From: an uncultured delta proteobacterium
GTDB lineage: Bacteria > Desulfobacterota > Desulfobacteria > Desulfobacterales > JAHEIW01
Direction of reading: 5' to 3'
Assembly (NCBI GenBank): GCA_963706575.1
Contig: CAVPNL010000006.1
Coordinates: 896,001 to 960,000 of the forward strand
DNA: 64,000 nucleotides
Shown here in pieces: positions 24,127 to 60,900 of the stretch. The translations under genes were made by a program, and so were the position numbers. Every line of letters begins with the position of its first letter. Positions within the stretch are counted from its first letter, which is position 1. The notes beneath the pieces are model-generated. The model made no database searches. It saw only the letters and a program-made list of their open reading frames with translations, and was not told the origin of the DNA.

Positions 24127-25887
24127 CTACTTTTGCGTGACGCGCAGTACCTCTTCAATCGTGGTCAGGCCGTTTAATACCTTCTGCATGCCGTCCTGCC
24201 GTAGCGTTCTCATTTTTTGCTGCACGGCTTCATTTTTTATGCGGTTTGAGTCAAACGTTTTGAGAATGAGGCTTTTTAAGTGCTCGGTCAGCACCATGAT
24301 TTCGAATATGCCTAACCGCCCTCTATATCCGGTGTTGAAACAATTTTCACATCCCACCGCTTTGTAGACCGTATGCTCCTTAAAACGATTCGGCGAAAAC
24401 CCGATGCTTTTGAGATAGATCGGGTTTGGGATATAGGCTTTTCTGCAAGCTTCACAAAGCACGCGCACCAGTCGCTGGGCCACCACCGCCAAAATAGATG
24501 ATGAAATTAAAAACGGCTCTACCCCCATATCCACCAGACGCGTAATTGCGCTGGCAGAATCGTTGGTATGAAGGGTGGAGAACACCAGATGACCGGTCAG
24601 GGCGGATTGAACGGCAATTTCGGCGGTTTCCTTGTCGCGAATTTCGCCGACCAGGATGACGTCCGGATCCTGACGGACAATCGATCTGAGGCCGCGGGCA
24701 AATGTCAGCTCGATTTTGGGATTCACCTGAATCTGACTGATGCCGTTGATTCGGTATTCGATGGGGTCTTCGATGGTAATAATGTTGATGTTGGGCTCGT
24801 TGATCGACGATAATATCGCATACAGTGTTGTAGTTTTGCCGCTGCCCGTAGGCCCGGTATTGAGGATAATCCCATTGGGGTTGGAAACCAGCCTTTTCAA
24901 CAATTTCAGTCTGGTGGGGGTCAGGCCCAGGTCCTGCAGCTCAAGCAGTGAGCCGGATTTATTGAGCAGCCGCAAAACCAGCCGTTCACCAAATGCCGTC
25001 GGGATGGTGGAAACTCTCACATCGATATCCTGATCGCCGATCTTAACCTCAAAGCGCCCGTCCTGGGGCAAACGTTTTTCAGCAATATTCATTTTTGCCA
25101 TGACTTTGACTCTGGAGATCAAAGCCGGTTGGATCCATTTCGGGGGTGTCAGCAGGTCATAGAGAATACCGTCCACCCGGTAACGGACCGTAAAGCTGTT
25201 CTGGTAGGGTTCAAAATGAATATCGCTGGCGCGCGCCTTGATGGACTGGGATATGATGTGATTGACCAATTTGATAATCGGGGCGTCGCTGGTGTCATCC
25301 AGCAAGTCGGCGGTTTCTTCTATTTCACTGATAATGTTGCTGCCGTTTTCTTCCATGTCCTGGACCAGCTGTTCGGCCGAATCCCGCCTTAAATCATATT
25401 GCAGGTTGATGGCTGAAACGATGGCTTCCCGGGTGGACAGTACCGTACGATAATTGTCGATGCCGATGGTCTTTACGAGATCATCCAGGGGCTGAAAGTT
25501 CAGCGGATCGTTTATGGCAATAATGCACCCCGGTGCAAATTGCGTTGTCTCAGTTTGAGGATCATTCTGGGGCGTCAGGCCGCAATCTTTGGCTGAGATC
25601 GGCTGGCTGTATTCCAGGGGGACGATATTATATTTTTTCAAAAACTGAATGGAGACTTTATCAGTGAAATCCGATTCGGTGTTGTCAAATGGCAGTTTTG
25701 GCCAGAAGGGCATTCCGTATTGGACGCTTAGCGCCTCCAACAATTGGTCTTCAGACAGGTTTTTTTGATCAATTAGAATTTGACCGATAGGGTTCCCGGT
25801 CTCGCTGCGCACGCGTTGGGCTTCGGCCAGATGGTCTTCGTTGAGACCGAATTTGTCTTTCAATATGTCTGTCAAACGATGAATCAT
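24127..25887 (-). CDS. gspE: Type II secretion ATPase GspE
   Basis: ASDIHFEP, EKRLPQDGR, GPTGSGKTTT, RQDPDVILVGEIRD, STLHTND, tetracysteine motif. Confidence 0.95.
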   Translation of the reverse strand: MIHRLTDILKDKFGLNEDHLAEAQRVRSETGNPIGQILIDQKNLSEDQLLEALSVQYGMPFWPKLPFDNTESDFTDKVSIQFLKKYNIVPLEYSQPISAKDCGLTPQNDPQTETTQFAPGCIIAINDPLNFQPLDDLVKTIGIDNYRTVLSTREAIVSAINLQYDLRRDSAEQLVQDMEENGSNIISEIEETADLLDDTSDAPIIKLVNHIISQSIKARASDIHFEPYQNSFTVRYRVDGILYDLLTPPKWIQPALISRVKVMAKMNIAEKRLPQDGRFEVKIGDQDIDVRVSTIPTAFGERLVLRLLNKSGSLLELQDLGLTPTRLKLLKRLVSNPNGIILNTGPTGSGKTTTLYAILSSINEPNINIITIEDPIEYRINGISQIQVNPKIELTFARGLRSIVRQDPDVILVGEIRDKETAEIAVQSALTGHLVFSTLHTNDSASAITRLVDMGVEPFLISSSILAVVAQRLVRVLCEACRKAYIPNPIYLKSIGFSPNRFKEHTVYKAVGCENCFNTGYRGRLGIFEIMVLTEHLKSLILKTFDSNRIKNEAVQQKMRTLRQDGMQKVLNGLTTIEEVLRVTQK

Positions 25888-25908
25888 AATGGGTAATTGA
25901 TAATGGAT

Positions 25909-27891
25909 TTAATCCGTCTGCGGTTCATCTTGTTTATATAGTTTTATTGCGCCTTCTTTGACGGTGCCCATCTGGCCTTGCTTATTTTTTAAAATTTCCT
26001 GGGCCTCCAGCGGGCTTTTGATGACGCGCGGGGTCAGGAAAATATAGAGATTGGTTTTTTGGTTGGTTTCGGTTCGTTTGCGAAACAGCCATCCCAATAC
26101 GGGAATGTCGCCCAGAACGGGAACTTTGGTGTCATTGCGCGTGCTGGAGTCATCAATCAGACCGCCGATCACCACTGTCTGGCTGTCTTTGACGATAACG
26201 GTGGTATCCACCGTGCGCTTCTGGGTTACCGGAAGGGTGGATGCGGTGGTCAGGGTCGAGGCCAGGTCGATGTTGGTCACCTCCAGGGAAATTTTCATGC
26301 GTATCAGGCGGCCTTCGGTCACGTGCGGGGTGATTTTTAAGATTTTACCGACATCCCGGTATTCAAAGGACTCAAATGTTCCTCCCGAAGTATCGGTGGT
26401 GGCTCGGGTCTGATAGGGCCGGTTTTCGCCCACTGTAATCCGGGCTTCCTCGTTATCGGTGGTTAAAATCTGGGGCGTGGATAAAATGCGAAATTCATCA
26501 TCGGTTTTGACGGCCTTTATGATCGCGGAGATGTTAGAAACCGTTATTCCGGCGATTTCGGTCGTGCCGTGGAGCAAGCCAGCCGCAAACCCCCCTGCAA
26601 ACGGATTTCTGGGAAGTCCGCTGCCCGGATCCAAACTCGGCTGGATGGAATCGCTAAAAGCTGCACCTACGTTTGTACCTCCTGTCTCCCCAAACGCCTG
26701 CCAGTCGATACCGATCTCCAGGCTGGTGTCCATGTTCACCTCCATGATAAGCGATTCGATAAAAACCATGGAGCGCGGGATATCCAGTTTTTTGATGACC
26801 TCTCGCAGGACGATGTAGTCTTCCTGATCGGCCATAATGATGAGGCTGTTGGTGGCTTTGTCAGCAGATATTTTAACCTTGCCGGAGACTGCCGCTGCAG
26901 CGGCTTTGCCCTTGGGGGCACCCGCCTGCTGGGTGGGCACTTCCTGCAGCACTTTGGCCAGTTCTTCGGCGGTTGCGTTTTCACAATAGTAAACATGGAT
27001 TTTCCCCTTGCCCCGGGGGGCTTCCTTGTCAATCATGGCAATCAGTTGCTTGATCCGGAGGGTGTCCACTTCATTTGCCAGCAGGACAATGATGTTGGTG
27101 CGCTCGTCAGCCACCATGGTGACTGCTTTTTCCGGGGCACCTTTAACCGGCTTTCTGGTCGGCTTAAATACCGTGCTTAACAGGCTCACCATTTTGGTAG
27201 AATCCGCATATTCGATCGGAATGACCGAAATTTCCTGGCCGATGCCGGGCACATCGATTTGTTTTAGGATCTTGAACAACCGCTGGATGTTGGAATACAC
27301 ATCGGTGATAATCATCATATTGGTTGGCTGGTAGGCCAAGATGACACTGCTTTTTGAAATCATGGGGGTAAACAGTCGTTTGATCTCAACCGGGTCGGCG
27401 TATTTTAACGGTATCAGCTGGGTGACGATTTTATCCTCGGGGTCGGCCGCTTCTTCACGCAGGCGGGTTTCAATGCTTTTTGAGCGCGCATCCGGTGAAG
27501 GCACAATTTTAACGATCTCGCCGGATTGCACCGTGGTGTAGCCGTGAACTTCCAGCACTGACTCAAATACTTTGTAGGCCTCTTTCAGCGATATTTTTGA
27601 GGGTGATATAATCGTCACTTTGCCTTTCACCCGCTGATCGACGACAAAATTGGTTGCGGTCAGTTCGCTCATAAACTTGATAAAAACATTGATATCCACA
27701 TTGTTGAAATCAATGGATACAAACTGGTCATTGCTTTCGGGCTTTTCGGGTGTTGATTTGGCCGTCTGAGCCATGCTGGAAGCGACCCAGAATGGATGAA
27801 TGCTGACCATAATTGCCAAAGCCGCGATAATCGGTATGAAAATTAATTTAAAATTTACTTTCATTTTTTCCCAGCCATTTTTTCTATTCAA
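25909..27891 (-). CDS. gspD: Type II secretion secretin GspD
   Basis: FVVDQRVKGKVTI, LSTPQILTTDNEEA, VVIGGLI, KVPVLGDIPVLGWLF. Confidence 0.95.
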   Translation of the reverse strand: MNRKNGWEKMKVNFKLIFIPIIAALAIMVSIHPFWVASSMAQTAKSTPEKPESNDQFVSIDFNNVDINVFIKFMSELTATNFVVDQRVKGKVTIISPSKISLKEAYKVFESVLEVHGYTTVQSGEIVKIVPSPDARSKSIETRLREEAADPEDKIVTQLIPLKYADPVEIKRLFTPMISKSSVILAYQPTNMMIITDVYSNIQRLFKILKQIDVPGIGQEISVIPIEYADSTKMVSLLSTVFKPTRKPVKGAPEKAVTMVADERTNIIVLLANEVDTLRIKQLIAMIDKEAPRGKGKIHVYYCENATAEELAKVLQEVPTQQAGAPKGKAAAAAVSGKVKISADKATNSLIIMADQEDYIVLREVIKKLDIPRSMVFIESLIMEVNMDTSLEIGIDWQAFGETGGTNVGAAFSDSIQPSLDPGSGLPRNPFAGGFAAGLLHGTTEIAGITVSNISAIIKAVKTDDEFRILSTPQILTTDNEEARITVGENRPYQTRATTDTSGGTFESFEYRDVGKILKITPHVTEGRLIRMKISLEVTNIDLASTLTTASTLPVTQKRTVDTTVIVKDSQTVVIGGLIDDSSTRNDTKVPVLGDIPVLGWLFRKRTETNQKTNLYIFLTPRVIKSPLEAQEILKNKQGQMGTVKEGAIKLYKQDEPQTD

Positions 27892-28768
27892 TTTTATAAT
27901 TCAGGACCCGTTTCCGGCCGCGGCGCTTTATCTCCAGTTGGACTTCGGGAGTCGATGACAGGTCGCCAAAAATTTGCATCGCATCCTCCACCGATTCGAT
28001 GGGGGTGCCGTTGACGCCGGTAATGATGTCTCCATTGCGCAAGCGCATTTTCCTAAACATGGTGTTGGGTTTGATTGCCGTGATGGAAATTCCGGACGGT
28101 TTACCGTCTTCGATGTGCGGCCGGATGTTGGCCTGTTCCATGAGTTGATCGAGATTCTCCAGCGCATTTTCGATCTGATCACTTTTCAACGTGAGTTGAC
28201 GGGGATTAGGGGAAACCGGCAACCTGGGCGGTGAGGCCTCTTTTCTGGCAACCCGCGGACTCGATCCGCCCCCTTTTGCGGTTCCGGCTTCTTCCATCCC
28301 CAATACTTCATCGCGATCGTTTACACTCAAAACCACCTTTTGTCTTAATATCAATTTTACAGTGGCATCCTGGACGCTATCCCCGACGCGATACAGATTC
28401 TGCTGTCTGGTCTTCGTGTCTTCGATAACGGCATACGCCCGGCGCCCCTTGCCTGTTACCGTTCCCCATAACCTTAGCTTCAGATCCGTTTCTTTAAGAT
28501 TATCGACATTAATGGTCTTGGCAGGCGCTGCTACAACATCCGGGCTCGTGTTAAACAGGTTCCGTTTCGTAATGGCGCCATAGCGCGACAGCGGCGGATG
28601 ATCGTTTTGCTGTTTAAGGGTCACCTTATCCGGAAGGACCTGCGGCATTTCAACGGGGCTTAGCCAGGTCTTGCTGATGGTATAAACGGCGCTGACGCCA
28701 AGATAGACACCTGCGGTAATCAGCAGCACATTGGCGATCATAAAATATTTTTTAGCCGTCATCATCAT
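27884..28768 (-). CDS. gspC: Type II secretion protein GspC (TM-HR-PDZ), canonical copy
   Basis: N-terminal TM, RNLFN, LRLWGTV..AVIED..QNLYRVGD, PDZ LRNGDIITGVNG. Confidence 0.9.
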   Translation of the reverse strand: MMMTAKKYFMIANVLLITAGVYLGVSAVYTISKTWLSPVEMPQVLPDKVTLKQQNDHPPLSRYGAITKRNLFNTSPDVVAAPAKTINVDNLKETDLKLRLWGTVTGKGRRAYAVIEDTKTRQQNLYRVGDSVQDATVKLILRQKVVLSVNDRDEVLGMEEAGTAKGGGSSPRVARKEASPPRLPVSPNPRQLTLKSDQIENALENLDQLMEQANIRPHIEDGKPSGISITAIKPNTMFRKMRLRNGDIITGVNGTPIESVEDAMQIFGDLSSTPEVQLEIKRRGRKRVLNYKIE

Positions 28769-28811
28769 AGATTTAATCCAAAGACTGAACCCTTCTCTTT
28801 TGAAATGGGTT

Positions 28812-29675
28812 CTAGTTAAATGAATATTCGGGTGAATCCATGGTGCCGGTAATCTTAAATGGAAACCCCTGCTTATCCGAATTGCCGCCAGCGAAAAGTT
28901 GCGGAAGATTCTTTCCCAGCTTGGCCAGCAGCGCCGCTTGTGGATTTACCGTTCCGGACAAGTCCAATATTTTTCTTGCTGAACGACCGCTAAACTTAAT
29001 CGAACCCGAGATAAGGGCACCCAGCTGATTGCCTTCGATCTGACAGTGGTGAATGATCAAAGAACGGTTATTGAGCGCCAATTCAGCCTCGATTGTGTTA
29101 AAGGACAGCATGTTTTGATTCAGTACCGGGGGTGAAAATTCAATTTCCCCGTCAGTTAGAATCAGATCCCCATTTAACCCCTGATGGGGTGCTTTGGTTT
29201 TAAATGTCAGTGTGCCATCCAAATTGCCGGAAATTTTGTGGGTTGTTATGGCGCTTAATGCGTGCAGCTGTTTCACCTGTATTCCGACCAGATCCGCATC
29301 TATCGTCATCTCTCTGTTCGCAGAATTTTTGCTGATGTCCATCTGGCCTACTAAAGTACCGCCATAACCTTTACCCTTGAACGATAGATGGGTCGTTGAC
29401 AAAAATAATGATAAAATATCCGGAGATATTTTTAAGTTTTCCATCTCGGCCAGGGTCTGACCAAGATGGTATACGCTAACGTCATAAAGCTTTAAACCCG
29501 GTGGAAAACCCGGTTTTACCCGACCGATTTCTACCGCAAGGCCCGGGTGAACCTGGCGGACCTGATCCGCCAGATATTCTTTTACCGTGCCGGACGGAAA
29601 AAGAATATAAAAAAAGAGCAGAGCCGCACAAATTATGTAAATGACCCAAAAGATCTTAGCTTTAAAAACTTGCAT
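28812..29675 (-). CDS. gspN: Type II secretion protein GspN
   Basis: N-terminal TM ending YILFP, beta-rich body, position between gspM and gspC. Confidence 0.75.
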   Translation of the reverse strand: MQVFKAKIFWVIYIICAALLFFYILFPSGTVKEYLADQVRQVHPGLAVEIGRVKPGFPPGLKLYDVSVYHLGQTLAEMENLKISPDILSLFLSTTHLSFKGKGYGGTLVGQMDISKNSANREMTIDADLVGIQVKQLHALSAITTHKISGNLDGTLTFKTKAPHQGLNGDLILTDGEIEFSPPVLNQNMLSFNTIEAELALNNRSLIIHHCQIEGNQLGALISGSIKFSGRSARKILDLSGTVNPQAALLAKLGKNLPQLFAGGNSDKQGFPFKITGTMDSPEYSFN

Positions 29676-30226
29676 CAGGTTTCCAGGGTTTCAACCTGCA
29701 AGATGACATTAACGAGACCCTCGTTTTTATCTTTTTTTGAGATCGAAAGCTTTTTTACGATGACCATGTTTTTTGATGTTTCGATACCGTACAGATAGCT
29801 GGTGAGCTGCTCCAGCGTGACGGCATCTATTTTCATTTCAACCCGTGAAAGCCTGTAGTTGCTGTTTTTCTGGACCGTATTTGAAGGCTTCATATAACTG
29901 ATGCGGTCCTTGATGCCGGCCTGACCGGCGAGCTGATCCATAAAGGAAAAAAGCGTAAATCCTTTTTCTCTTTTGCCGATGCTGATTTGTGACCGCTGCA
30001 ATTTTTCTTTCAGGGCACTGTGTTCTGCTTGAAGGCGGCGCATCTCTGCAAGCTCTGATTTTTTGGTCTGCAAGTTTCGCTGCATCTGGTTTTTATTTTC
30101 AACAAAAGGCGTGATGACAAACTGGACGATGATCAGTAATCCTAAGAGACAGCCAGCCCCGTAAATTATATATTTTTCGCGCCGATTGAGCTTTTTCAGA
30201 TTTAAATATTTTTTTATAAATTCCAT
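29675..30226 (-). CDS. gspM: Type II secretion protein GspM
   Basis: LNRREK before a TM, coiled coil, C-terminal ferredoxin-like segment, synteny. Confidence 0.8.
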   Translation of the reverse strand: MEFIKKYLNLKKLNRREKYIIYGAGCLLGLLIIVQFVITPFVENKNQMQRNLQTKKSELAEMRRLQAEHSALKEKLQRSQISIGKREKGFTLFSFMDQLAGQAGIKDRISYMKPSNTVQKNSNYRLSRVEMKIDAVTLEQLTSYLYGIETSKNMVIVKKLSISKKDKNEGLVNVILQVETLET

Positions 30227-30248
30227 ATTAAGTGTCTGTGCAAACGTA

Positions 30249-31700
30249 TTATAATTCCACCTTCAATATGAAACGCACCTCATTCCCCGAGCGATCGATG
30301 TTGGACGAGCTAATGGTGACTTTCTCAAATTGCGGGATCTGTTCCAGTCGACTTTTAATGCCGTCCACCGAGTTGTAGGTGTCGGTTGTACCGGAGATTA
30401 CCACATTATCCGGTTGAATGACCAGCCGGGTCAGGTTAACCGTGATGCTTTCAGGAATTTTCTCGCTGATGCTGTTTAAAATATCAATGCTGCGGATATG
30501 AGGCCCGGCTTCGGCTTCAAAGGTCGCAGTTTTTTTCGTTTCCCGGATCTTGGCCTGCATTTCCTGATATGGATATCGAATCGTCTTAACCGCCGGAAAT
30601 GTCGACTTAAACACTTGAGCCATCTGGCTGTTGATACGGCTGATGTGTTTATTTAATGTATACGATTCCATTATCAGGGTAAAAAAGAATAGCACCAGTA
30701 CAGCTGCTGCCAGGATGCCGGTTTTTATTAAGGGGCCTTTATGTTTGGATATAAATTTCTGGGCGGCAAACTGGCCCTTGTGGAAATTAAGGCCATCGTA
30801 ACCTTCGACTTCCATCAAGGCGAGCGCCAGGGCATTGTCCATTTTGGCCGGAATCCACGGGTTTTCCACCTTACTTTCCATTGGAATGTTCAGACGGTCT
30901 GCAATTGAGGCTGTCTTAACCGGGAGATCGAGTGCCCTGGATAGTTGCGGGATGATATCCGTTTCATCCAGCCCGATTCCATTGGCAAGCACTTCAATAG
31001 GTTCAAAATTCAATTCCGATGATTCCAAAAAGGCCGCCAGCGTTTGCTGGATTTGAGCGCAGAGCTGTGGCGCTTTAGAGGAGCCGGCGGGCGGTAATGG
31101 AAACGATCGTATCAGCTGCAGGCGGCCGCCCGCCAGGACAAAAAGGGTGCCGTAGGTATCATCAATTTCGATAAAAAGCTGGTCTTCTTCCGGATCGGCC
31201 TGGTTGGCCAGACACAGGGCAGTGGGCAACCCGCTGAGTGTCAGTTTTTCAGGGTCGGCTTGAATGGATGCCAGGGCATCCATATAGGGTGACAATTTGC
31301 TTTTTTCAATCGCCGCTGCGATGAGTTCAGTCTGCTCACCGGCCGTGGAGCTATCTAAGGTGTGAAAATCTATAACCAGATCTTCGGCGGCATAGGGCAG
31401 AGTGGTTTCGAGTTCAAAGGGCAGAACCATACGGATTTTTTTGGAATTGCTGAATGGGATCCGCAGGTTTCGGAAGATCGCCTGATTGGCGGGGATGGAA
31501 ACCACATAGTCACTACCGGTTAAGTCCATTTCTTCCGCCATGGTTTGCAGCGCGGACGACAGGCTTCTTTCCGGGTCTTCGGGACCGGAAAAGGGCAGGT
31601 GGATAAAATCTTCCACGCGGTGTTCCCGCAGGCTGCTGTGTAAAAGCACTGCCGTTACCGTTTCATTTCGGATATCGATGCCGAGGACTTTTCTACTCAT
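30249..31700 (-). CDS. gspL: Type II secretion protein GspL (PilM/PilN-like)
   Basis: VLGIDI actin-like start, LPFELE, TM, PilN-like C-terminus. Confidence 0.85.
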   Translation of the reverse strand: MSRKVLGIDIRNETVTAVLLHSSLREHRVEDFIHLPFSGPEDPERSLSSALQTMAEEMDLTGSDYVVSIPANQAIFRNLRIPFSNSKKIRMVLPFELETTLPYAAEDLVIDFHTLDSSTAGEQTELIAAAIEKSKLSPYMDALASIQADPEKLTLSGLPTALCLANQADPEEDQLFIEIDDTYGTLFVLAGGRLQLIRSFPLPPAGSSKAPQLCAQIQQTLAAFLESSELNFEPIEVLANGIGLDETDIIPQLSRALDLPVKTASIADRLNIPMESKVENPWIPAKMDNALALALMEVEGYDGLNFHKGQFAAQKFISKHKGPLIKTGILAAAVLVLFFFTLIMESYTLNKHISRINSQMAQVFKSTFPAVKTIRYPYQEMQAKIRETKKTATFEAEAGPHIRSIDILNSISEKIPESITVNLTRLVIQPDNVVISGTTDTYNSVDGIKSRLEQIPQFEKVTISSSNIDRSGNEVRFILKVEL

Positions 31701-31832
31701 TAGCCATCTATTTTTTAAGTTAAAAATTTATTAGATGAAACAGTGAATAAGTTCTACCACGAAAGCACGAAAATTCGAAAACACGAGATTGATAGTTTTC
31801 GTGCTTGTTTCTAGTTGCCTTGGTTCTGATTC

Positions 31833-32918
31833 TCACGAATCAGTTTGATAGCTTAAAATTTTGCAGGACCATTTGCCGGTTTTTTCATTTTTTAACCGTT
31901 GGACCACTGCGGTTGTGGTCAGCACGGAATCATTTACTTTTGCCGTCGAAATAATCCTGAAAATGTCACTTGCCGTGGTGATCAAATTTTTATCCAGATT
32001 CATTGCGCTAAATCCGGCAATGTTTTTATACCATGTTGGGTCCGATAAGTCAGGGGCATCTTTGCCGCTTGCGGCTTCCTGGCGCCATTCGAAAAAGCCC
32101 AGGGCCAAGTCCGCGTTTTCAGACGGCAGCATCGAGACGAGTACCGGAAGCGGTGCGGTGTTGATGTTTATCTTTCCGGTAAAGGTAAACGATGTGCCGG
32201 CCCCCGCTGTCATGCCGTATACGGTCAATGAGTCCGCTATTGCGGGCGTTTCCGTGCTGCCGTAAAATAATTCGGGCGTGATGCCCTTGACCAGCAACAA
32301 ATCATTGATGTCCGCTATCGGACCGTTGCGACTGCTGTAGGCGGGGCTCAAATCCTGATAATATGTGGATTCGGCACCGCTTAATCCCGTAATGGCTTCA
32401 TCATCGCCGGAATCAAGCCAGTCTTTCAGTGAATTGATAATTGCCGGTGGCTGACTGTCTTCCGGCGTTTCTTCACCGGCATCCTTAAAAATGTTAAAAT
32501 ACCGCTCCAGAAGCTGGCGCTGGGAATCGTTAAAATTCCGGCTGTCGGGAAACGCGACCAGGGCGTTTACCTGAATACGGCCCATTTCGTCGGAAATGGC
32601 GACCGAAAGCGTTCCGTCATCAAAAGGGATTTCGCTCAGCAACTCGTTTATTTTGTCTGGATTTGCCCAGTCCTCCTGTAAAGAGTCGATATTTGACTCT
32701 GCCCGGTCTTTTGCCAGCAGCGCCATGGCGGCATGAATACCGGAAGTTGCCATTTGAGAAAGGGTCAGGCGATCCCGTGCAGCGGCTGCCGAAAGAACCG
32801 CAAAACGTGCCCGACGATTGTATTCCAGTGCCGTAGCGACAAGAATGGTTGTTACGGAAATGACCAGCAAAAGGGCAATGCCGCGTTCATTACCGATCGT
32901 TTTGGTCATGTTTACCAT
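31833..32918 (-). CDS. gspK: Minor pseudopilin GspK
   Basis: NERGIALLLVI, DEMGRIQVNAL, DWLDSGDD, GAES, LLLVKGIT, KININTA. Confidence 0.9.
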   Translation of the reverse strand: MVNMTKTIGNERGIALLLVISVTTILVATALEYNRRARFAVLSAAAARDRLTLSQMATSGIHAAMALLAKDRAESNIDSLQEDWANPDKINELLSEIPFDDGTLSVAISDEMGRIQVNALVAFPDSRNFNDSQRQLLERYFNIFKDAGEETPEDSQPPAIINSLKDWLDSGDDEAITGLSGAESTYYQDLSPAYSSRNGPIADINDLLLVKGITPELFYGSTETPAIADSLTVYGMTAGAGTSFTFTGKININTAPLPVLVSMLPSENADLALGFFEWRQEAASGKDAPDLSDPTWYKNIAGFSAMNLDKNLITTASDIFRIISTAKVNDSVLTTTAVVQRLKNEKTGKWSCKILSYQTDS

Positions 32919-32921
32919 TTC

Positions 32922-33764
32922 TTAATCGATTTTCTCCCGGGATACGGGCAAAGACACCATGGTTTCAAAGGTTTGCGATACCTTTTTATTTGCCAATTCC
33001 AGTTTTATGGCAATTGCTTTCGGTGTCGCATAGCCGAATTCATCCGAGTCCGAATCCCAGACATCGAATTCGATCCCATCTTTGTCATAAAATTTAAATG
33101 ACAAGGATTTGACGTACTTACACAATGCCGGGTCACTGCCTTTTTCTTCAAATTCAGGATATGGGAAAAGGTTATCCGCCCGTTTCAGCGTCAGATGCCC
33201 GTCATCTCCGGCTTTAACGTAATATATGATTTCAGCAATTCCTTGTCTGATAATTTTCTCAAAACCAACATGGGCCCGGCTGGTGAATCTTAAATTTTGT
33301 GCAAATCCCGTGCCACCGGAATCAGCGACGGTGGCGACAAATCGATACGGATCCGGCGGCTGATCGAATTCAGGCGGCTTATAAATCGGTCGCTGGGCAA
33401 CGTGGATCGACTCCAGGTCAAGCGACATGCGTTTCAGGCAGTTTTTCGCCATTTCATATATATCCGCACTTTCGTCTAACACTTCTGTGGTTGAAAATAC
33501 GGAATTAAACGATGCCAGAACAGTCGTCACCACGATTGCCAGTATCGCGGTCGCCACCAGGATTTCCATCAAGGTGAAACCTGCAACTGGTTTCTGGCTA
33601 ATGGTTTCTGGCCTCTGGTAGCTGGCTTCTGGCGAATGGCTTCTGGCTTCTGGCTGCCGGTTGCTGTTCGCCAGAAATTTGAAGTCTAAAATGTGGAACT
33701 GAACCATAAATAACCCATAAATTGGATAATTTAAATCAGACGTTAATCTTATTAAATTCCGCAA
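32922..33764 (-). CDS. gspJ: Minor pseudopilin GspJ (start uncertain)
   Basis: GFTLMEILVA N-methylation motif and synteny. Confidence 0.8.
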   Translation of the reverse strand: MRNLIRLTSDLNYPIYGLFMVQFHILDFKFLANSNRQPEARSHSPEASYQRPETISQKPVAGFTLMEILVATAILAIVVTTVLASFNSVFSTTEVLDESADIYEMAKNCLKRMSLDLESIHVAQRPIYKPPEFDQPPDPYRFVATVADSGGTGFAQNLRFTSRAHVGFEKIIRQGIAEIIYYVKAGDDGHLTLKRADNLFPYPEFEEKGSDPALCKYVKSLSFKFYDKDGIEFDVWDSDSDEFGYATPKAIAIKLELANKKVSQTFETMVSLPVSREKID

Positions 33765-33793
33765 TGCGAATTCCGCAATCCGAATTCGAACAG

Positions 33794-34219
33794 CTATTCC
33801 CTTTGAAACCGATACGTTCTTAAACTGTGTGAAAATTGGTTGTTGTTATACGATATAGTGAGGTCGACTTGCTTTAAATCATTGGCAACTTCCCCCAGCA
33901 CCTCAGAGGATACATCGGCTACTGAAGTCCGCCAGCTATAGCCCGGGTATTGCTCGCCGAAGTCGCCTGAATCGTTCGGGAAACCGTCTGATGAAAGGGT
34001 TTCCAGTTCAGCCATCTTGTTTTGGGCCAACAGGGGAGCCAGGGTATAAAACCGGGCCGCGGTGTTCATGGTCAAACTCTGGGAGTGCATTCGGTACACG
34101 CTCACCAGAACGATTGACATAACCGCCAGGGCAATCATGACTTCAAGCAATGTAAAACCGAATGCGGTTGGTGAAAACCCGGGCAGGTCCTTGAGATATC
34201 GATGTTTGAATCCAGTCAT
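33794..34219 (-). CDS. gspI: Minor pseudopilin GspI
   Basis: GFTLLEVMIALAV, LLAQNKMAELE. Confidence 0.85.
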   Translation of the reverse strand: MTGFKHRYLKDLPGFSPTAFGFTLLEVMIALAVMSIVLVSVYRMHSQSLTMNTAARFYTLAPLLAQNKMAELETLSSDGFPNDSGDFGEQYPGYSWRTSVADVSSEVLGEVANDLKQVDLTISYNNNQFSHSLRTYRFQRE

Positions 34220-34403
34220 TGGGCGTATACTTTATTATACATCTTCAATCCACACTATTATACAAAATTTGACACCAAATATACAGTTTTATTTATAAAA
34301 AATATGGAGAAATTTTTGTGCTTGAGATTCCGGGCAAAATCGAAGTCGGCTAGTGGATAGAAAGATGGTTTCGGATTTTAGGTTATTCATTTAGACCGCT
34401 GAT

Positions 34404-34985
34404 TCAATTTTCAAAACTGGCATACATCTCGTAGCGAGTCACTTCAGAAATAAAAGGCTCGATCAGATAGGATACATATTTGTCTCCGTCTTGAATGTGG
34501 ATCAGGACCTTATCCGAGGTGCCGTTTTTATAAAACCAGATATCGGTCTGCCCCGAATTTATTTTGCCGCGAATGGGGTATTCGATATCAGCGATTTTAA
34601 GGCCGCTCGGGAGGGAACTGGCATTCAACGAAGCGTTTTCAAGTTCTTCAGCCGACATGGAGGCATCGGTTTCCCAGAACTGTTCCGTATCCAGGTTGAT
34701 ATGTAGCGAATATTGCTTTTGATTGCGGAGCGCCGCTTCTTTTAATGCCTGAATTTTGCCGATAATCCATCGCGAACCTGTTTTGGTTTTGTCCAGCAAC
34801 AAGGTTTCATGGAAACGGGGGACGGTAAAAATGAGCATGATACCCAACAACGACATGACCACAATCAGCTCCAGCAGCGTAAAACCGTTCCGGTGTCCGT
34901 TGTCAGTCGTCCGTGGTCCGTTGTTGAGAGCTATTTGGGTTTTACAATATTCTAATAGCATTTTGAAAAGGTTCAAATCTGACAA
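34404..34985 (-). CDS. gspH: Minor pseudopilin GspH
   Basis: GFTLLELIVVM and synteny. Confidence 0.8.
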   Translation of the reverse strand: MSDLNLFKMLLEYCKTQIALNNGPRTTDNGHRNGFTLLELIVVMSLLGIMLIFTVPRFHETLLLDKTKTGSRWIIGKIQALKEAALRNQKQYSLHINLDTEQFWETDASMSAEELENASLNASSLPSGLKIADIEYPIRGKINSGQTDIWFYKNGTSDKVLIHIQDGDKYVSYLIEPFISEVTRYEMYASFEN

Positions 34986-34991
34986 AATTCT

Positions 34992-35441
34992 TTATTCTAT
35001 TTCCCAATTGTTAATATCCTGATCATCCTCCCCTTCGCCGCCGGGTGCGCCATCTTTCCCGTAGGAAATTAAATCAAAGTCGCTATTTACACCCGGGGAA
35101 ATATATACAAATTCGTTTCCCCAGGGATCTTTCGGCACCTTGCGCTTTTCGAGATATCCGCCTTCGCGCCATTTTTTCGGTATTACTCCGGTCTCGGGTT
35201 TTTCAACCAGCGCCACAAGTCCCTGTTCAGTTGACGGGTATTCGCCATTGTCAAGTTTGTACATTTTTAGAGCGGTCTCAAAGGTGGTGATATCCATTTT
35301 GGCTTTTACGCGTTTTGCTTTATCGGGTTCCCCCATTATTTTGGGGCCGACGTAGAGTGCCAGGATGCCGAGTATGATCACAACAACCATTAATTCTATT
35401 AAAGTAAATCCACGGCTGTCATGTTTAATCCTTTGAAGCAT
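34992..35441 (-). CDS. gspG: Major pseudopilin GspG
   Basis: [45 protein letters not shown]. Confidence 0.95.
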
Positions 35442-35738
35442 ATTTAGTTTGCTCCTTTAAAATTTTAAATGATATGAATGGGTCGCTTAAACGGAAGCAT
35501 TGACCGCTTGCAATCAAGGAGTGCCTAAACTCCTAAAACACATATAAAGATTTTTCAACAATAGAATATCAGGTTTCAAAACGTATGTCATCCAATTATC
35601 TAACGATGTGTTTCGAGACATAAAAAATTTTGTTGATTGCTGAAAGGGAGTCTATTATATAGAATTAGCCAGGGGGGGTTTACCTGCACGCGCATCTGCA
35701 AACGATTCTTACCGCCAACCCTTAAAATACGTAGCGTC

Positions 35739-36647
35739 ATGACCCTTACAAAAACCGATATTATTGGGGCCGTGTCCGACCGTACGGGATTCAGCAAGAA
35801 AAAATCCCGCCTTTCCGTAAATAGCCTTATCGAAATCATCAAAAGTACGCTTGAATCCGATCAGAACATCAAAATCGGTCATTTTGGCAAATTCGATATC
35901 AAAGAAAAGAAAGCGCGCCCATGGCGCAGCCCCTTTACCGGCAAGATCATGATGCTTCCCCCCCGGCGGGTGGTGACGTTTAAGCCTTTTAAGCGGCTAA
36001 AAGATAAAATCAATACGCAGCCCATCAGCATTGAGCCCCAAGAACGTTCTCGCGCAAAAATTCGTCCGATCCGAACGGGTGCCTTAACAAAGGATGAATT
36101 AAAGAAAATTTTAACTGAGCACAGACGCTGGCTGGATTCCCAGGGTAAAAGCGGGGAAAAGGCCGTCCTGTCGCACGCGACGCTTTTCAGAGCCGATCTG
36201 TATGCAGCCAAACTTTCCTTTATCGACTTTCAAGGCGCTGATCTGCGGGAAGCCGTTTTATCAGAAGCCGATCTCTATGATGCCAATCTTCGGGACACCA
36301 ATCTGGCCGATGCTGTCCTTGATTGGGCTAGTCTTGATGGCGCCAAACTTCAGCGAGCTTCTCTCCAAGGGGCTGATCTTCGATGGGCCAATCTTGAAGG
36401 CGCCAATTTGTCAGGCTGCAACCTCCGATTCGCCAACCTGGAAGGTGCCAATCTCAAAGACGCGAAGTTAACTGAGGCGAATCTATATGGTGCGAACCTG
36501 ACAAATACAGATTTGAAGGGTGCCATACTGGCCAAGATCAAGCTGGATTATGAAACCCAGTTAAATCTGCCGCAATCCGTTTTCGACAAATACCGGCAAA
36601 CCTTTCGGATTCTGGAATGGTCACCGGCCCTATCACCGTCTTATTAA
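35739..36647 (+). CDS. IHF/HU-like DNA-binding domain fused to a pentapeptide-repeat domain
   Basis: MTLTKTDII..IKIGHFGKFDIKEKKARPWRSPFTG..RRVVTFKP, then ELKKILTEHRRWLDSQG and about 20 A(D/N)Lxx repeats. Confidence 0.85.
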   Translation: MTLTKTDIIGAVSDRTGFSKKKSRLSVNSLIEIIKSTLESDQNIKIGHFGKFDIKEKKARPWRSPFTGKIMMLPPRRVVTFKPFKRLKDKINTQPISIEPQERSRAKIRPIRTGALTKDELKKILTEHRRWLDSQGKSGEKAVLSHATLFRADLYAAKLSFIDFQGADLREAVLSEADLYDANLRDTNLADAVLDWASLDGAKLQRASLQGADLRWANLEGANLSGCNLRFANLEGANLKDAKLTEANLYGANLTNTDLKGAILAKIKLDYETQLNLPQSVFDKYRQTFRILEWSPALSPSY

Positions 36648-36719
36648 CTCCAGGTCGACTTTTATAATTCATTCACCTGATCTCGGTAAATATAGCTCAT
36701 AACTGCTGGCTTACCGGGT

Positions 36720-36792
36720 CCATGTACTGTCGTTTTCCGCCATGAGTTGTCCTCCTGGAGCCATGAGCTGTCGCTCTGCACCATGAGCTGGC
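36720..36792. repeat. Four phased 12-bp direct repeats (CCATGWRYTGKC), period 20/21/20 bp
   Basis: ccatgtactgtc 36720, ccatgagttgtc 36740, ccatgagctgtc 36761, ccatgagctggc 36781. Confidence 0.8.
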
Positions 36793-36959
36793 AAGGCTTT
36801 CTTTTTTTATTCACTAAGCGCTTGCGCCATTGCGGTGTATGGTATAAAATTGTTTTATAATCGCTCATCAAAAATACAGTCACCTGGCCTCTCAGCACAT
36901 GCCACGCCAGTGCAATTTCCATTTGTTGCTCTATCCCGATTGGCCGACTTATTAGCAAG

Positions 36960-39302
36960 ATGGCTTCAAAGCGCAAATCAAAAAAATCTGTCTCGAAGAT
37001 TCCGCCTAAAACGGCAGAGTATGTTGTCGCGGTGTCCCTGCAGCACCCCAAACTGGGTGCCCGGCGTCTAGTGCCGCTGCTGAAAAAGAAGCGCATACCC
37101 GTATCCGCCGCATCCATCCAGAGCATCCTGCGCCGCGAGGGCCTCCAGAACTGTGAAAAGCGGCTGGCGAAGCTCAAAATGCAGGCACAGAAACCCAAAT
37201 CGATCCCAAAGAAACCTTCCGCCAGGATCCCGGACAAAGTTGCCGGGCGTATCGTCGCGGTATCGCTGAAAAACCCTGAGATGGGTGCCCGACGCCTGGT
37301 GCCGTTGCTGAAAAAAAAGCGGATATCCGTATCCGCCGCAACCGTCCAGAGCGTCCTGCGCCGCGAAGGCCTTCAAAGCCGTGACAGGCGGCTGGCGCAG
37401 ATCAAGAGGCGCGCCCAAAAGGCCCAAAAACCCAAATCACCGCCAAAGAAGCCTGAAACCAAAATCACCGACGAGGTTACTGATCGTATCGTCGCGATCG
37501 CCCTGCAGAACCCCGATTTCGGCGCCCAACGGTTGCTGCCGATATTGAAAAAGGAAAAAATCCGAATTCCCGCTTCGACGGTCTATGCGGTATTGAAGCG
37601 TCATGGTCTGCAGTCCCGTGCTGCGAGAATGGCGAAACTGGAGGAGCGGAGCAAAGCGGCCCCCAAGCCCGAGTCGCCGCCTAAAAGGACTTTGCCCAGA
37701 ATCACCGATGAGGTTGCCGGGCACATTTGCGAGATATCTCTGCAAAACCCCGATTTGGGAGCCAAACGCCTGGCACCTCTGCTGAAAGAACACGGAATAT
37801 CTGTATCCGCATCGGCTGTCTATCGTATTCTAAAGCATTACCAACTGCAAACGCTTGCAAAACGGTACGCCAAAGTCGCGAAAATCACCTCGGAACCGGT
37901 GATCATTCCAAAGACATTTCCCGAAAAGATTCCGCCCGAGGTCGAAGACCGCATTTCCGAGATTTCTTTGCAAAATCCCGAATGTGGTTCCCGGCGCCTG
38001 ATACCGTTATTGCAGCAGGAGGAAATTTTTGTTTCGGCCTCTGCTGTTTATCGGATCCTGAAGCGCAACAATCTAGAAAATCTGCAAAAAAGGCTTTTGA
38101 AACGCGAAGCGCTGCAGGCCCCGGAGACCCCGCCTGAACCCGAAATAGAGGGGCCCCAAGCTATCGCTGAAGCGGCGGAAATAGAACCGACCGCGGCTGT
38201 GGACCAAGGGCCGGAGCCGGTTTTCGAGCCTGCGGTTACCGTCCCGATTCCGCCCGTGGATAAAGCGCCTGCTCCTGCGGAGGAGCCGGAGCCCACACTG
38301 GAACCTGCGGTGGCTGAAGCCGTTAAAGCCGCTGCACCTGCTAAATCCGAACGATCACCTGTTCGAAAAGCACCTGTAAAAACAATTAGAAAAAGGAGCC
38401 ACTGGGTTTTCTATCCGCTCTATCTTCTGCTGTTTCTTCTGATCGGATATCTGGGGTTGCACGCCGTACAGAGCATCCAATATGCCCGGCTGGATACCGA
38501 AGCCATGCAAATCGATGCTTCTGTTGCGGTCGGTGTCGCTGCAAAAACGGTGACCGCCGCGCAGCCTCTTGACGGTTACCGTCAAATCTGGGAGCGCAAC
38601 CTGTTTAATACCGGCAGTGTCAAGGAGCCCGATCCGGCGGAAAAAATTGCCCTCGCCAGGCTCGCGCCGGCTAAAAAGGGCCTGGGCCTCGAACTGGTGG
38701 GAACGGTGGTGGCTGACAACCCCAAAATGAGTCGCGCCATCATTGACAATCGCAGCATTCGAAAGCAGGAAGCCTACCGTGAAGGGGAAACGGCCGGAAA
38801 GGTCCGCATTAAAAGAATATTGCGCAACAACGTGGTCATTACCACCGATAAAGGCGACGAGCTGCTCACGGTCGAGATCAAAGAATCCGGCAGAAGCGCT
38901 CCTTCCACACAGACACAACAAATTGGCAGCCAGTCATCTTCAACCCAACAGGCAACCGGGACCCGGCAGCAAAGCGCCAGAACCAGTTCCATTAGACTCA
39001 AGCGCGACGAGGTCGCGGCTTCCCTTGCCGATATCGACGGATTAATGGAGAAGATGAAGATTGCGCCTCATAAAAGCGGAGATCAAGCGGCCGGCTTCAG
39101 GCTTGGCAGTATAACGCGTGACAGTGTTCTGCGACAAATGGGGCTGCGCAGCCGGGATGTGATTGTGGGCCTAGATGACGAAACAATCACCAGCCCGGAT
39201 CAGGCCCCGGACTTTTTCAAAAAGCTTGCTGACGGGGGTGAAGTTACCATCAAACTCAAACGCCGCCGCCGCACCCGCCAGATAAAACTCAACATCGAAT
39301 GA
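36960..39302 (+). CDS. GspC paralogue with five N-terminal IS481-like HTH repeats, Pro/Glu linker, TM, HR and PDZ domains
   Basis: Five repeats of 76-79 aa (I..ISLQNP..GARRL.PLL....I.VSAS.VY.IL.R..LQ...R), TM WVFYPLYLLLFLLIGYLGL, and a C-terminal region that aligns by eye with GspC 27884..28768. Confidence 0.85.
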   Translation: MASKRKSKKSVSKIPPKTAEYVVAVSLQHPKLGARRLVPLLKKKRIPVSAASIQSILRREGLQNCEKRLAKLKMQAQKPKSIPKKPSARIPDKVAGRIVAVSLKNPEMGARRLVPLLKKKRISVSAATVQSVLRREGLQSRDRRLAQIKRRAQKAQKPKSPPKKPETKITDEVTDRIVAIALQNPDFGAQRLLPILKKEKIRIPASTVYAVLKRHGLQSRAARMAKLEERSKAAPKPESPPKRTLPRITDEVAGHICEISLQNPDLGAKRLAPLLKEHGISVSASAVYRILKHYQLQTLAKRYAKVAKITSEPVIIPKTFPEKIPPEVEDRISEISLQNPECGSRRLIPLLQQEEIFVSASAVYRILKRNNLENLQKRLLKREALQAPETPPEPEIEGPQAIAEAAEIEPTAAVDQGPEPVFEPAVTVPIPPVDKAPAPAEEPEPTLEPAVAEAVKAAAPAKSERSPVRKAPVKTIRKRSHWVFYPLYLLLFLLIGYLGLHAVQSIQYARLDTEAMQIDASVAVGVAAKTVTAAQPLDGYRQIWERNLFNTGSVKEPDPAEKIALARLAPAKKGLGLELVGTVVADNPKMSRAIIDNRSIRKQEAYREGETAGKVRIKRILRNNVVITTDKGDELLTVEIKESGRSAPSTQTQQIGSQSSSTQQATGTRQQSARTSSIRLKRDEVAASLADIDGLMEKMKIAPHKSGDQAAGFRLGSITRDSVLRQMGLRSRDVIVGLDDETITSPDQAPDFFKKLADGGEVTIKLKRRRRTRQIKLNIE

Positions 39303-39389: not shown

Positions 39390-40616
39390 CTAACGGATCA
39401 GCTGATTCATTTCAAAGATGGGCAGGCAAATCGAAAGCACGATGAATCCGACTATGCAGCCCATTACCAGGATCATGACCGGTTCCAGGTAAGACGTCAG
39501 CCTCAGGATGCTGTTTTCGGCCTCTTTTTCAAAAATATCGGCAATTTTATTGAGCATGCCTTCCAATTCACCGCTTTGCTCTCCAACCTGAATCATCTGG
39601 ATGGACAACTGCGGAAAAACCTTGCTTTCGTTCAACGCCGCCCATAACGCCTGCCCTTTGCCGACCTCCTGGGCTGCTTTTTGCACGGCATTGGAAATCA
39701 ACACATTGCCGGCGATATTTTTGACGATATCCAGCGCAATTAACATGGAGACGCCGTTTTCAAGCAGAGAACCCAGTGTCCGGGTAAAGCGGGCGACCGC
39801 CAGTTTTTTTACCAAAACGCCAAAGACCGGCAACGAAAGCAGGGTTTTATCGTAAACGTAACGACCGTTTTCGGTTTTCTTGACGCGATGCAGGGTGATG
39901 CCGGCACCAATTACGATCATAAGGATAACCCACCAAAACGATTTAAAAAATTCACTTAAAAAAATGAGCAACCGCGTCGGAGTCGGCAGGACCTGGTTCA
40001 TGTCCATAAAAATAGCGGTGATACTGGGCACAATGTAGGTTAAAAGCACAAACAACACCAGGGTACCGATGATACACATGAAGAGGGGATATGCCAGGGC
40101 GGTTTGAATACGATTGCTTAAATCCTGCGCTTTTTCGGTAATGTCTGCCAGGCGTTCAAGCACAATTTCGAGTGTGCCGGAAGTCTCGCCGGCGCGGACC
40201 ATGTTGATAAACAGGGGGGGAAAAATTCCCGGATACTGCGATAAGGCCTGCGCAAAATTCTGGCCTTCAACAATGGCATCTTTAACCTGGGCCAGTACCG
40301 TTTTAAGGCGACGGGATTTGGTTTGGGGCACCAATGCATCGATTGCAGAGACCAGCGGGAAACCGGCGCTAATCAATGTTGCCAGCTGCCGGGTCATTAT
40401 GGAGGTTTCGGCGGGTTTGACCCGGGTCAGATAGCGCGACAGACCAAGGTTTCGGGACGCTTTTTTTACCGGCTCCTCCTGGGATTCTTTGATGGCAACC
40501 GGGAAGATACCGCTTGAGCGTAATTTCTGGCGTGCGGCACGTGCACCGTCGGCGTCGATAATACCGGAGGTTGTTTTTCCTTTGGCATCCAGTGCCGTAT
40601 ATTCATAGACGGGCAT
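39390..40616 (-). CDS. gspF: Type II secretion inner-membrane platform protein GspF
   Basis: MPVYEYTALD, TRQLATLISAG, MVRAGETSG, ALAYP, VGEQSGEL, LEPVMI. Confidence 0.95.
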   Translation of the reverse strand: MPVYEYTALDAKGKTTSGIIDADGARAARQKLRSSGIFPVAIKESQEEPVKKASRNLGLSRYLTRVKPAETSIMTRQLATLISAGFPLVSAIDALVPQTKSRRLKTVLAQVKDAIVEGQNFAQALSQYPGIFPPLFINMVRAGETSGTLEIVLERLADITEKAQDLSNRIQTALAYPLFMCIIGTLVLFVLLTYIVPSITAIFMDMNQVLPTPTRLLIFLSEFFKSFWWVILMIVIGAGITLHRVKKTENGRYVYDKTLLSLPVFGVLVKKLAVARFTRTLGSLLENGVSMLIALDIVKNIAGNVLISNAVQKAAQEVGKGQALWAALNESKVFPQLSIQMIQVGEQSGELEGMLNKIADIFEKEAENSILRLTSYLEPVMILVMGCIVGFIVLSICLPIFEMNQLIR

Positions 40617-60756: not shown

Positions 60757-60804
60757 GCATGAACCTCCTTTCAAAGTTTCGTTGACTATCGTTCTTTGGG
60801 ATAT

Positions 60805-60830
60805 GACGGATAAACGAACAAAAAGGTTAC
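60805..60830 (-). promoter_or_regulatory. ECF-type promoter GTAACC-N16-CGTC (leftward)
   Basis: Minus strand gtaacctttttgttcgtttatccgtc. Confidence 0.7.
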
Positions 60831-60900
60831 ACTGTCTGAAGACCCCACGTATTAATAGATTGACAATTTTTCCCTCTAACATATAGATAATTACCTATGT

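Follow-up and report, generated by a model that had tools for sequence, protein, structure and literature searches.

A plus-strand cassette within a type II secretion cluster of uncultured Desulfobacterales: an IHF-pentapeptide fusion and a GspC paralogue with transposase-derived helix-turn-helix units

A complete type II secretion system (T2SS) gene cluster lies on the minus strand of a 64,000-nucleotide stretch of DNA (the window) from an uncultured delta proteobacterium of the order Desulfobacterales (GenBank assembly GCA_963706575.1, contig CAVPNL010000006.1, positions 896,001 to 960,000), and by Pfam it is split between gspG and gspF by two plus-strand genes. The first, here called IHF-PRP, encodes an IHF-like domain fused to a pentapeptide-repeat protein (PRP) domain, and the second, HTH-gspC, encodes a paralogue of GspC preceded by an array of helix-turn-helix (HTH) units. 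A preliminary description of this DNA had already recognized a plus-strand two-gene cassette in the minus-strand cluster, with DNA-binding-type domains in both genes and a second GspC in one of them. Gene order and strands from open reading frames (ORFs) and Pfam agree with that account, as do Bac_DNA_binding in gene one and the HTH families in gene two, and gene two matches T2SSC above the cut-off and has a PDZ domain by fold. The cassette runs from the ATG of IHF-PRP (35739) to the stop of HTH-gspC (39302), and both gene starts are backed by homologue alignments. It is a conserved T2SS accessory module of a subset of uncultured Desulfobacterales, and we put at about 0.45 the probability that it serves them as a membrane-anchored DNA tether or relay. 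Its carriers are a group of uncultured sediment Desulfobacterales, relatives of sulfate reducers, and form a subset of their lineage.

The domain make-up of HTH-GspC carries most of the argument, and its parts, all on the plus strand, are as follows (AF2, AlphaFold2 model; pLDDT, its per-residue confidence).

36960-39302, plus strand: HTH-gspC (gene two), 780 residues (Pfam, NCBIfam, AF2 model)
36960-37193, plus strand: HTH unit 1, residues 1-78 (Pfam, AF2)
37194-37430, plus strand: HTH unit 2, residues 79-157 (Pfam, AF2)
37431-37667, plus strand: HTH unit 3, residues 158-236 (Pfam, AF2)
37668-37904, plus strand: HTH unit 4, residues 237-315 (Pfam, AF2)
37905-38135, plus strand: HTH unit 5, residues 316-392 (Pfam, AF2)
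38136-38399, plus strand: acidic Pro/Ala/Glu-rich disordered spacer, residues 393-480 (pLDDT <50)
38409-38501, plus strand: single transmembrane (TM) helix, residues 484-514 (AF2)
38508-38861, plus strand: GspC homology region (HR), residues 517-634 (PF11356; aligns to the HR of OutC)
38982-39296, plus strand: PDZ domain, residues 675-779 (PDB sequence matches, Foldseek, pLDDT ~92)

Pfam places each of HTH_32, HTH_21 and HTH_Tnp_Tc3_2 in five stretches of the protein. The five tandem units (36960-38135) are of about 76-79 amino acids (aa) each, with DNA repeat periods of 228-237 nucleotides (nt), and are joined by basic linkers of the KPKSPPKK type, which we take to resemble SPKK minor-groove motifs. 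In the AF2 model, built on a 57-sequence alignment (mean pLDDT 72.9), they appear as five separate four-helix units with pLDDT >90, and the linkers between them are disordered and basic. The array (residues 1-390) has a net charge of +53 that is graded along its length, the two outermost units having +18/+19 and the one nearest the membrane +1, and helix 3 has a conserved Tyr, Lys and Arg in the alignment, features that make a DNA-binding character of the array plausible. The spacer that follows has a net charge of -7 and a variable length among the aligned homologues. Just before the TM helix, the stretch KTIRKRSHW would place the N-terminus, and with it the HTH array, on the cytoplasmic side by the positive-inside rule.

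Beyond the membrane the protein resembles GspC. T2SSC (PF11356) matches residues 517-634 at 30.9 bits (cut-off 27), and the beta domain of the HR (residues 577-640) is modelled at pLDDT 75-83. The C-terminal PDZ domain falls under the Pfam cut-offs but is clear by sequence (PDB profiles: OutC 6hcg_e at 9e-8, PulC PDZ 5hj1, EpsC 2i4s) and by fold, and the HR/PDZ side as a whole matches OutC 6hcg, PulC 5hj1, EpsC 2i4s and LspC 7oio. Because Foldseek with the full 780-residue model ranked matches on the PDZ/HR side only and left the HTH units unranked, the kinship of the latter is argued from sequence. Residues 487-780 are about 30% identical to the window's own gspC product; T2SSC matches the genome just twice, both times inside the window, and HTH-GspC is therefore its sole GspC paralogue. 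With one TM helix, an HR and a C-terminal PDZ domain, it has the plan of OutC, PulC and EpsC and is paralogous to the delta-type GspC. However, GspC has a short cytoplasmic tail and a gene just upstream of gspD, whereas HTH-GspC has a 480-residue extension and is encoded outside the C-D position, which in the window is occupied by the canonical gspC (27884-28768). HTH-GspC is accessory and patchy, and always additional to canonical gspC.

IHF-PRP is the partner of HTH-GspC, and its parts lie on the same strand.

35739-36647, plus strand: IHF-PRP (gene one), 302 aa (Pfam)
35739-36014, plus strand: IHF/HU-like domain, residues 1-92 (Pfam, AF2)
residues 93-108, plus strand: disordered linker (AF2)
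residues 118-133, plus strand: helix (AF2)
36156-36548, plus strand: pentapeptide-repeat beta-helix, residues ~140-270 (Pfam, AF2)
residues 271-288, plus strand: C-terminal helices (AF2)

Bac_DNA_binding (PF00216) matches residues 3-92 at 88 bits (E 4e-25) and Pentapeptide (PF00805) matches at 117.5 bits (E 1.6e-34). The AF2 model (pLDDT 81, >90 across residues 140-270) is matched by Foldseek to 1ihf at TMt 0.81 and to the pentapeptide-repeat proteins Np275/276, HetL, MfpA and Qnr. It shares with IHF and HU the fold and the intercalating proline of the beta-arm, P65, which is invariant in 45 homologue sequences, but stays under the NCBIfam equivalog cut-offs for IHF alpha (89 bits vs 111) and IHF beta (47.9 vs 115); with MfpA/Qnr and HetL it has in common the tandem A(D/N)LXX repeats and the right-handed quadrilateral beta-helix. 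In these known proteins the two domains are separate, whereas here they form one fused chain, and the same fusion makes up the best 104 of the 120 matches listed for gene one. The pentapeptide domain is mildly acidic (net charge -5); MfpA and Qnr are pentapeptide-repeat proteins that mimic DNA. A complex prediction for HTH units 3-5 (residues 158-392) with the PRP part (residues 110-302), run without controls and with each partner's own alignment, scored 0.00 against a mark of 0.32, which speaks neither for nor against binding. The window also encodes a stand-alone pentapeptide-repeat protein of 260 aa (60100-60882, minus strand), flanked by genes for ECF (extracytoplasmic function)-type sigma factors at 57368-57985 and 61297-61848.

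The arrangement is not peculiar to this assembly. The order gspG (minus), IHF-PRP (plus), HTH-gspC (plus), gspF (minus) is found in eight independent assemblies (L001, L002, L034, L035, L036, L039, L040 and L043) and in part elsewhere, and in the covered parts of short Logan contigs from four other sequencing runs the HTH-gspC/gspF junction and the intergenic spacer are spanned; the assembly chimera that the preliminary description had named beforehand as a possible refutation is not what we see. Compared with four orthologues, the HTH array has a ratio of nonsynonymous to synonymous substitution rates (dN/dS) of 0.24-0.29 and the TM-HR-PDZ part one of 0.25-0.33; all four pairs thus indicate purifying selection on both halves of the coding sequence. 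Two RNA-library contigs fall inside HTH-gspC, a hint of transcription that DNA carry-over could also produce. HTH-GspC has 179 homologous cluster representatives, and the 120 of these that were listed are 434-793 aa long and come mostly from metagenome bins of Desulfobacterales; their names go no further than 'T2SS protein C/N' or 'HTH domain protein'. The Protein Atlas returned for the module just HTH/transposase and the protein's own cluster.

Where do the HTH units come from? The IS481 transposase model NF033577 matches HTH-GspC in 5 stretches (E 1.4e-42, model positions ~36-116), and the RED subdomain of Sleeping Beauty (5unk) matches the array at E 6.9e-5 in a PDB profile search. The N-terminal HTH of IS481/IS3 transposases (HTH_32, HTH_21) and the RED-type HTH of Tc1/mariner are homologous to all five repeats; the transposase has an integrase core, whereas in HTH-GspC Pfam finds no rve (DDE) core, and the HTH unit is present in several tandem copies joined to a membrane protein. 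These matches derive the HTH units from an IS481-type transposase, so far as sequence can tell. Two homologues, P0350 and P0341, retain IS481 model positions 52-284 of 284 followed by GspC_delta, with a catalytic region that is degenerate in the sequences read. When the array alone was searched against the full library, 133 of 1.84 billion representatives matched at E <= 0.001, and of the 48 scanned with Pfam, 26 were GspC-like (22 with T2SSC and 4 with PDZ alone; most have one to three HTH units), 12 were pure multi-HTH proteins, 3 were other fusions and 7 had no family. In a quick IQ-TREE tree of the TM-HR-PDZ part (64 rows), the 50 HTH-bearing rows fall on one side of a branch (SH-aLRT 82), a labelling that is in part built in, since it was by their HTH that many rows were retrieved. 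That side is sister to the canonical delta-type GspC group with the window's gspC (98), and the transposase-bearing and single-HTH forms lie near the base. The simplest reading is a single old fusion of an IS481-like transposase with a gspC duplicate, after which the core was lost and the HTH unit multiplied in tandem. The array is an exaptation and not a mobile element. When the window's genome was searched for an IS481 copy with ends that might match the dispersed element described below, a single IS481-like copy turned up, broken and close to the end of a contig. One further protein, P0244 (559 aa), combines two HTH units with a PBP2 transpeptidase half (model 236-591 of 593) and has no TM segment. 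It was set aside as evidence, being a single 2,001-base contig lacking the PBP2 N-terminus, and may be a chimera or a second host of the array.

The two genes keep company. Among 25 genomes of the GTDB family, HTH-GspC occurs in 9 and IHF-PRP in 8: seven genomes have both genes, two have only HTH-GspC, one has only a partial IHF-PRP and 15 have neither. Across 151 genomes of the order, a canonical GspC-like match is found in 104. The HTH form is limited to three of the 151, the window's genome plus G010 and G094 from a single other family, and the IHF-PRP fusion to the window's genome; G065, of a third family, strongly matches the C-terminal part of HTH-GspC alone. In the sampled genomes IHF-PRP occurs almost only beside HTH-gspC. 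We also examined 94 loci, 44 of them with the HTH part (some are near-duplicates, and the count for L006 was made by hand). Of the 44, 17 have IHF-PRP as a neighbour, upstream on the same strand in 15 and downstream on the opposite strand in L006 and L046, and gspF and/or gspG is adjacent in 15 of the 44. The preliminary description had asked whether the two genes co-occur and whether their place between gspF and gspG is conserved. The first part stood in that the genes are adjacent in all seven family genomes holding both, and the second in that the position recurs in two genera and on many independent contigs; as told below, neither is without exception.

The surroundings of the cassette in the window are these.

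24127-35441, minus strand: gspG-H-I-J-K-L-M-N-C-D-E block (Pfam)
24127-25887, minus strand: gspE (Pfam)
25909-27891, minus strand: gspD (Pfam)
27884-28768, minus strand: canonical gspC (T2SSC and PDZ; GspC_delta NF041515 at 166.8 bits, cut-off 150)
28812-29675, minus strand: gspN (TIGR04411)
29675-30226, minus strand: gspM (Pfam)
30249-31700, minus strand: gspL (Pfam)
31833-32918, minus strand: gspK (Pfam)
32922-33764, minus strand: gspJ (Pfam)
33794-34219, minus strand: gspI (Pfam)
34404-34985, minus strand: gspH (Pfam)
34992-35441, minus strand: gspG (Pfam)
35442-35738, both strands: divergent promoter region, with gspG on the minus strand and the promoter and leader of IHF-PRP on the plus strand (promoter scan)
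36712-36796, plus strand: copy of a dispersed element, four CATGA-N3-GTC at 21-nt spacing (nhmmer, profile)
36822-36850, plus strand: candidate promoter of HTH-gspC, TTGCGC-N17-TAAAAT (conservation by eye)
39390-40616, minus strand: gspF, convergent with HTH-gspC (T2SSF, E 2e-62)

The divergent region between gspG and IHF-PRP is strongly conserved in 9 aligned loci, and the promoter scan gives for gspG the candidate ATGACA-N17-TATTCT at 35591-35563 on the minus strand. In 4 of the 9, an insertion of ~190 nt separates the two back-to-back promoters (L002 2492-2978; L035 and L036 6363-6861; L043 3411-3897). The candidate promoter of HTH-gspC and the 5' leader that extends to 36959 look conserved by eye in the window, L001, L002, L004, L005 and L011; the candidate itself is below the threshold of the consensus scan, with a -35 match of 3/6. 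Rfam gave on 35300-37100 merely two chance-level matches (E 0.57 and 0.9).

The gspF-gspG junction itself takes several forms. L006, from the sister genus, has the order gspF, HTH-gspC, IHF-PRP, gspG, with HTH-gspC co-directional with the operon, and the metagenome contig L046 is laid out in the same way. In five genomes of the window's genus gspF is directly followed by gspG with a gap of 50-62 bp, and in two of these five a different contig carries the cassette (G160) or just HTH-gspC (G154). Related T2SS clusters with C-D-E-F order (L069, L073, L077, L081 and L086) carry between gspF and gspG a gspA-like AAA_22 gene, 28-38% identical to the clade-C ATPase described below; the junction is thus a recurrent slot for accessory genes. 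Copies of HTH-gspC unlinked to gsp genes often lie near genes for likely exported proteins, such as multicopper oxidases (L004 7-1740, L030 3150-5021) and PKD-domain proteins (L009 56-1213, L045 2147-4921, L048 101-649).

How might such a module work? HTH-GspC would be seated in the inner membrane. With its HR/PDZ end it would dock either on the N0 ring that the secretin forms in the periplasm or on the assembly platform, in the manner of GspC and of the scaffold GspB/OutB, the latter being a precedent for a second HR protein on one secretin. The spacer of ~90 residues would hold the HTH array off the membrane so that this multivalent basic array could reach and bind chromosomal DNA, while the IHF-like partner would bind and bend the same DNA and its pentapeptide domain would add a protein contact. 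The net result would be a membrane-anchored nucleoprotein link at the secretion machine, most likely used for reporting the state of the machine to nearby promoters or for holding it near particular DNA. DNA uptake or export, which the preliminary description had counted among the possible roles, finds no support because the HTH array is cytoplasmic, and a role in moving DNA is unlikely.

Several observations weigh against a membrane-anchored tether or relay. DNA binding and secretin docking by HTH-GspC are steps that we infer. The protein stays below the equivalog cut-offs for GspC (NF041515, 126.8 bits vs 150; TIGR01713, 60.6 vs 101.6), and it lacks the T2SSB signature (PF16537, 11.9 bits, E 0.19, cut-off 28.4); on these grounds it is filed as a GspC paralogue family and not as GspC or GspB proper. 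It is present in only 8 of 22 same-genus genomes and is therefore dispensable, and three genomes that are 90-97% complete do without it. The number of HTH units in relatives ranges from 1 to 5, a variation that suits avidity better than a fixed operator geometry. The cassette lies far from gsp genes in L003 and L005, as do the copies in G160 and G154. HTH-GspC without IHF-PRP is common, and in 8 of 25 loci with both flanks none of IHF-PRP, gsp genes and the ATPase stands beside it. That ATPase gene, with AAA_22 and SPOR domains, lies directly downstream of HTH-gspC in 8 of the 44 HTH-bearing loci (the sister clade), and also neighbours it in L010, L012, L060 and L063, where the HTH part is cut off; none of the 44 loci has it together with IHF-PRP. 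The cytoplasmic HTH part could thus be a protein-binding handle, given this GspA-like ATPase and the ExeA-ExeB complex of Aeromonas, for which the cytoplasmic ATPase domain of ExeA is required (PMC4098917).

If the HTH units are such a handle, for the ATPase or for IHF-PRP, HTH-GspC would be a GspB-like scaffold or chaperone of the secretin that acts through its HR and has no role on DNA, a proposal that we regard as rather improbable, if the best placed of the competitors. In its favour, a pentapeptide-repeat protein, HetL, binds the transcription factor HetR. The SPOR-bearing ATPase matches the GspA/MshM-like model TIGR03015, at 258.9 bits below the cut-off of 324.5, and the gspA-like genes in the F-G slot of related clusters point the same way, as does the need for the ExeA ATPase domain in the ExeA-ExeB complex (PMC4098917). 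OutB/GspB has a periplasmic domain with the HR fold of GspC that binds secretin N0 (PMC9239104), and there too, as with HTH-GspC, one T2SS has a second bitopic HR protein. GspB/OutB goes with GspA, an adjacent ATPase with a cell-wall-binding domain; HTH-GspC has a GspA-like ATPase with a peptidoglycan-type (SPOR) domain beside it in the eight loci above, and IHF-PRP in the window; GspB/OutB carries the T2SSB signature, whereas HTH-GspC is without it and has a PDZ domain, kept as in GspC and unlike OutB, and the cytoplasmic HTH array. Moreover, the window's genome already has a canonical GspA on another contig, and the extreme positive charge and the IHF-like partner suggest DNA over a protein partner. 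This GspA (AAA_22 and PG_binding_1, 575 aa; G000:C17:24410-26997, L015) is encoded far from the gsp cluster and is followed on contig C17 by an unassigned bitopic ORF of 269 aa, which resembles GspB by an N-terminal motif only; over the 214 residues available, Pfam and NCBIfam lend this likeness no support.

In the activators ToxR, TcpP and CadC a single TM helix joins a DNA-binding domain in the cytoplasm to a periplasmic domain, and HTH-GspC could be a membrane transcription factor of this kind instead of a structural T2SS part, its HR/PDZ side sensing for example unassembled secretin or the C-termini of exported proteins and the IHF-like bender aiding promoter control. The modelled N-in topology, which puts the DNA-binding domain and the periplasmic domain on either side of one TM helix, fits, the PDZ fold is shared with sensors of the DegS/DegP type, the gene has its own conserved candidate promoter and leader, many loci are unlinked to gsp, and secreted-type genes lie near unlinked copies (the five loci listed above). 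We nevertheless think it unlikely: comparison of related loci brought out no operator-like motif that is both conserved and private to the module, a variable number of HTH units and a long spacer set it apart from the ToxR-type regulators generally known, and its recurrence between gspF and gspG speaks for a connection with the machine. ToxR, TcpP and CadC have an OmpR-type winged helix, whereas HTH-GspC has a transposase-type HTH in 1-5 tandem units and a long disordered spacer, and its periplasmic part, unlike theirs, is taken from a component of a secretion machine.

The phased direct-repeat array that the preliminary description saw between the two genes is real, but it is a dispersed genus-wide element and not a dedicated site. 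In the 312-nt intergenic spacer CCATGWRYTG recurs at 36720, 36740, 36761 and 36781, that is at a spacing of 20-21 nt. A single-sequence nhmmer search found 20 copies at E < 0.01 on 11 contigs of the window's genome, 17 of the 20 outside any ORF of a greedy set, and a profile search found 25. The element is ~85 nt long (for example G000:C1:46053-46138, C8:324346-324431 and C5:32412-32497) and its alignment has four invariant CAT...GTC cores at 21-nt spacing; many copies have a further conserved 3' tail in common. A sequence-only model finds it in every one of 21 same-genus genomes, with 1-25 copies each, and in none of three sister-genus genomes, including the cassette-bearing G151. Since it is spread through the genus and present in genomes without the cassette, it is not a private operator. 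A reading as structured RNA or REP (repetitive extragenic palindromic) hairpin was rejected, as 15 folded copies gave mean z of 0.06 and -0.19 by strand and no consensus structure. In other strains an insert of ~31-34 nt, holding a small GCTTC...GAAGC palindrome, splits each 21-nt sub-repeat and stretches the spacing to ~52 nt (L002 4004-4128, L011 1132-1236; the corresponding window site is 36749/36750).

Could the HTH array read this element and so pin the secretion machine or inner membrane to many chromosomal sites? A domesticated transposase/repeat pair would then have become a chromosome-to-envelope tether, with 21-bp-spaced sites on one helix face, the IHF-like partner would bend the DNA, and HTH-GspC would control its own promoter through the upstream copy. 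In 605,758 bases from the 94 related loci, all 13 element matches (10 loci) lie upstream of HTH-gspC and on its strand, a position that can be explained by a single old insertion passed on vertically. Within the genus, genomes that carry the cassette have a median of 12 copies (n=8) and those without it 5 (n=14; Mann-Whitney p 0.004), the genomes being kin and not independent. Against the idea, the element is abundant without the cassette (23 copies in G156, 17 in G172), has no copy in G151 and is missing upstream of HTH-gspC in L001 and in about half of the close loci; nor do the sub-repeats (4 or 0) bear any relation across loci to the HTH units (3-5), the site number of 4 not tracking the HTH number. 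We hold this version to be improbable.

Lastly, that the cassette is an artefact or a decaying relic, whether an assembly chimera or a dead fusion left by an IS481 insertion, is close to refuted and very unlikely, for although the HTH units are transposase-derived and the module is patchy among close relatives, the arrangement recurs in the eight independent assemblies, contigs of other runs bridge the HTH-gspC/gspF junction and the intergenic spacer, the reading frames are intact, dN/dS is ~0.25-0.3, the HTH units are modelled with confident folds and the homologous cluster representatives number 179.

Elsewhere in the window, a molybdopterin oxidoreductase gene (44-2275, plus strand) is split by an in-frame TGA at 638-640 into ORFs 44-640 and 653-2275. 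As both ORFs share one frame, the TGA probably encodes selenocysteine and does not mark a break; the codons at 620-670 presumably correspond to the active-site motif of selenocysteine-containing formate dehydrogenases.

The preliminary description knew of no T2SS with such components, and a literature search, with subscription journals outside its scope, likewise found no publication describing a GspC that carries HTH repeats or a fusion of IHF with pentapeptide repeats. The components of the T2SS are regarded as a closed and well-charted set, to which monophyletic GspC paralogues with DNA-binding units captured from a transposase, together with an IHF-like partner, would add a cytoplasmic arm facing nucleic acid. 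The alternation of partners, IHF-PRP or a GspA-like ATPase, suggests a modular accessory layer of the secretin that is unstudied outside Proteobacteria. HTH-GspC is also a clean bacterial example of the domestication of a transposase into a structural or regulatory membrane protein. If the proposed binding holds, the module would offer a handle on how an envelope machine is positioned relative to the nucleoid and how its state is reported to gene expression.

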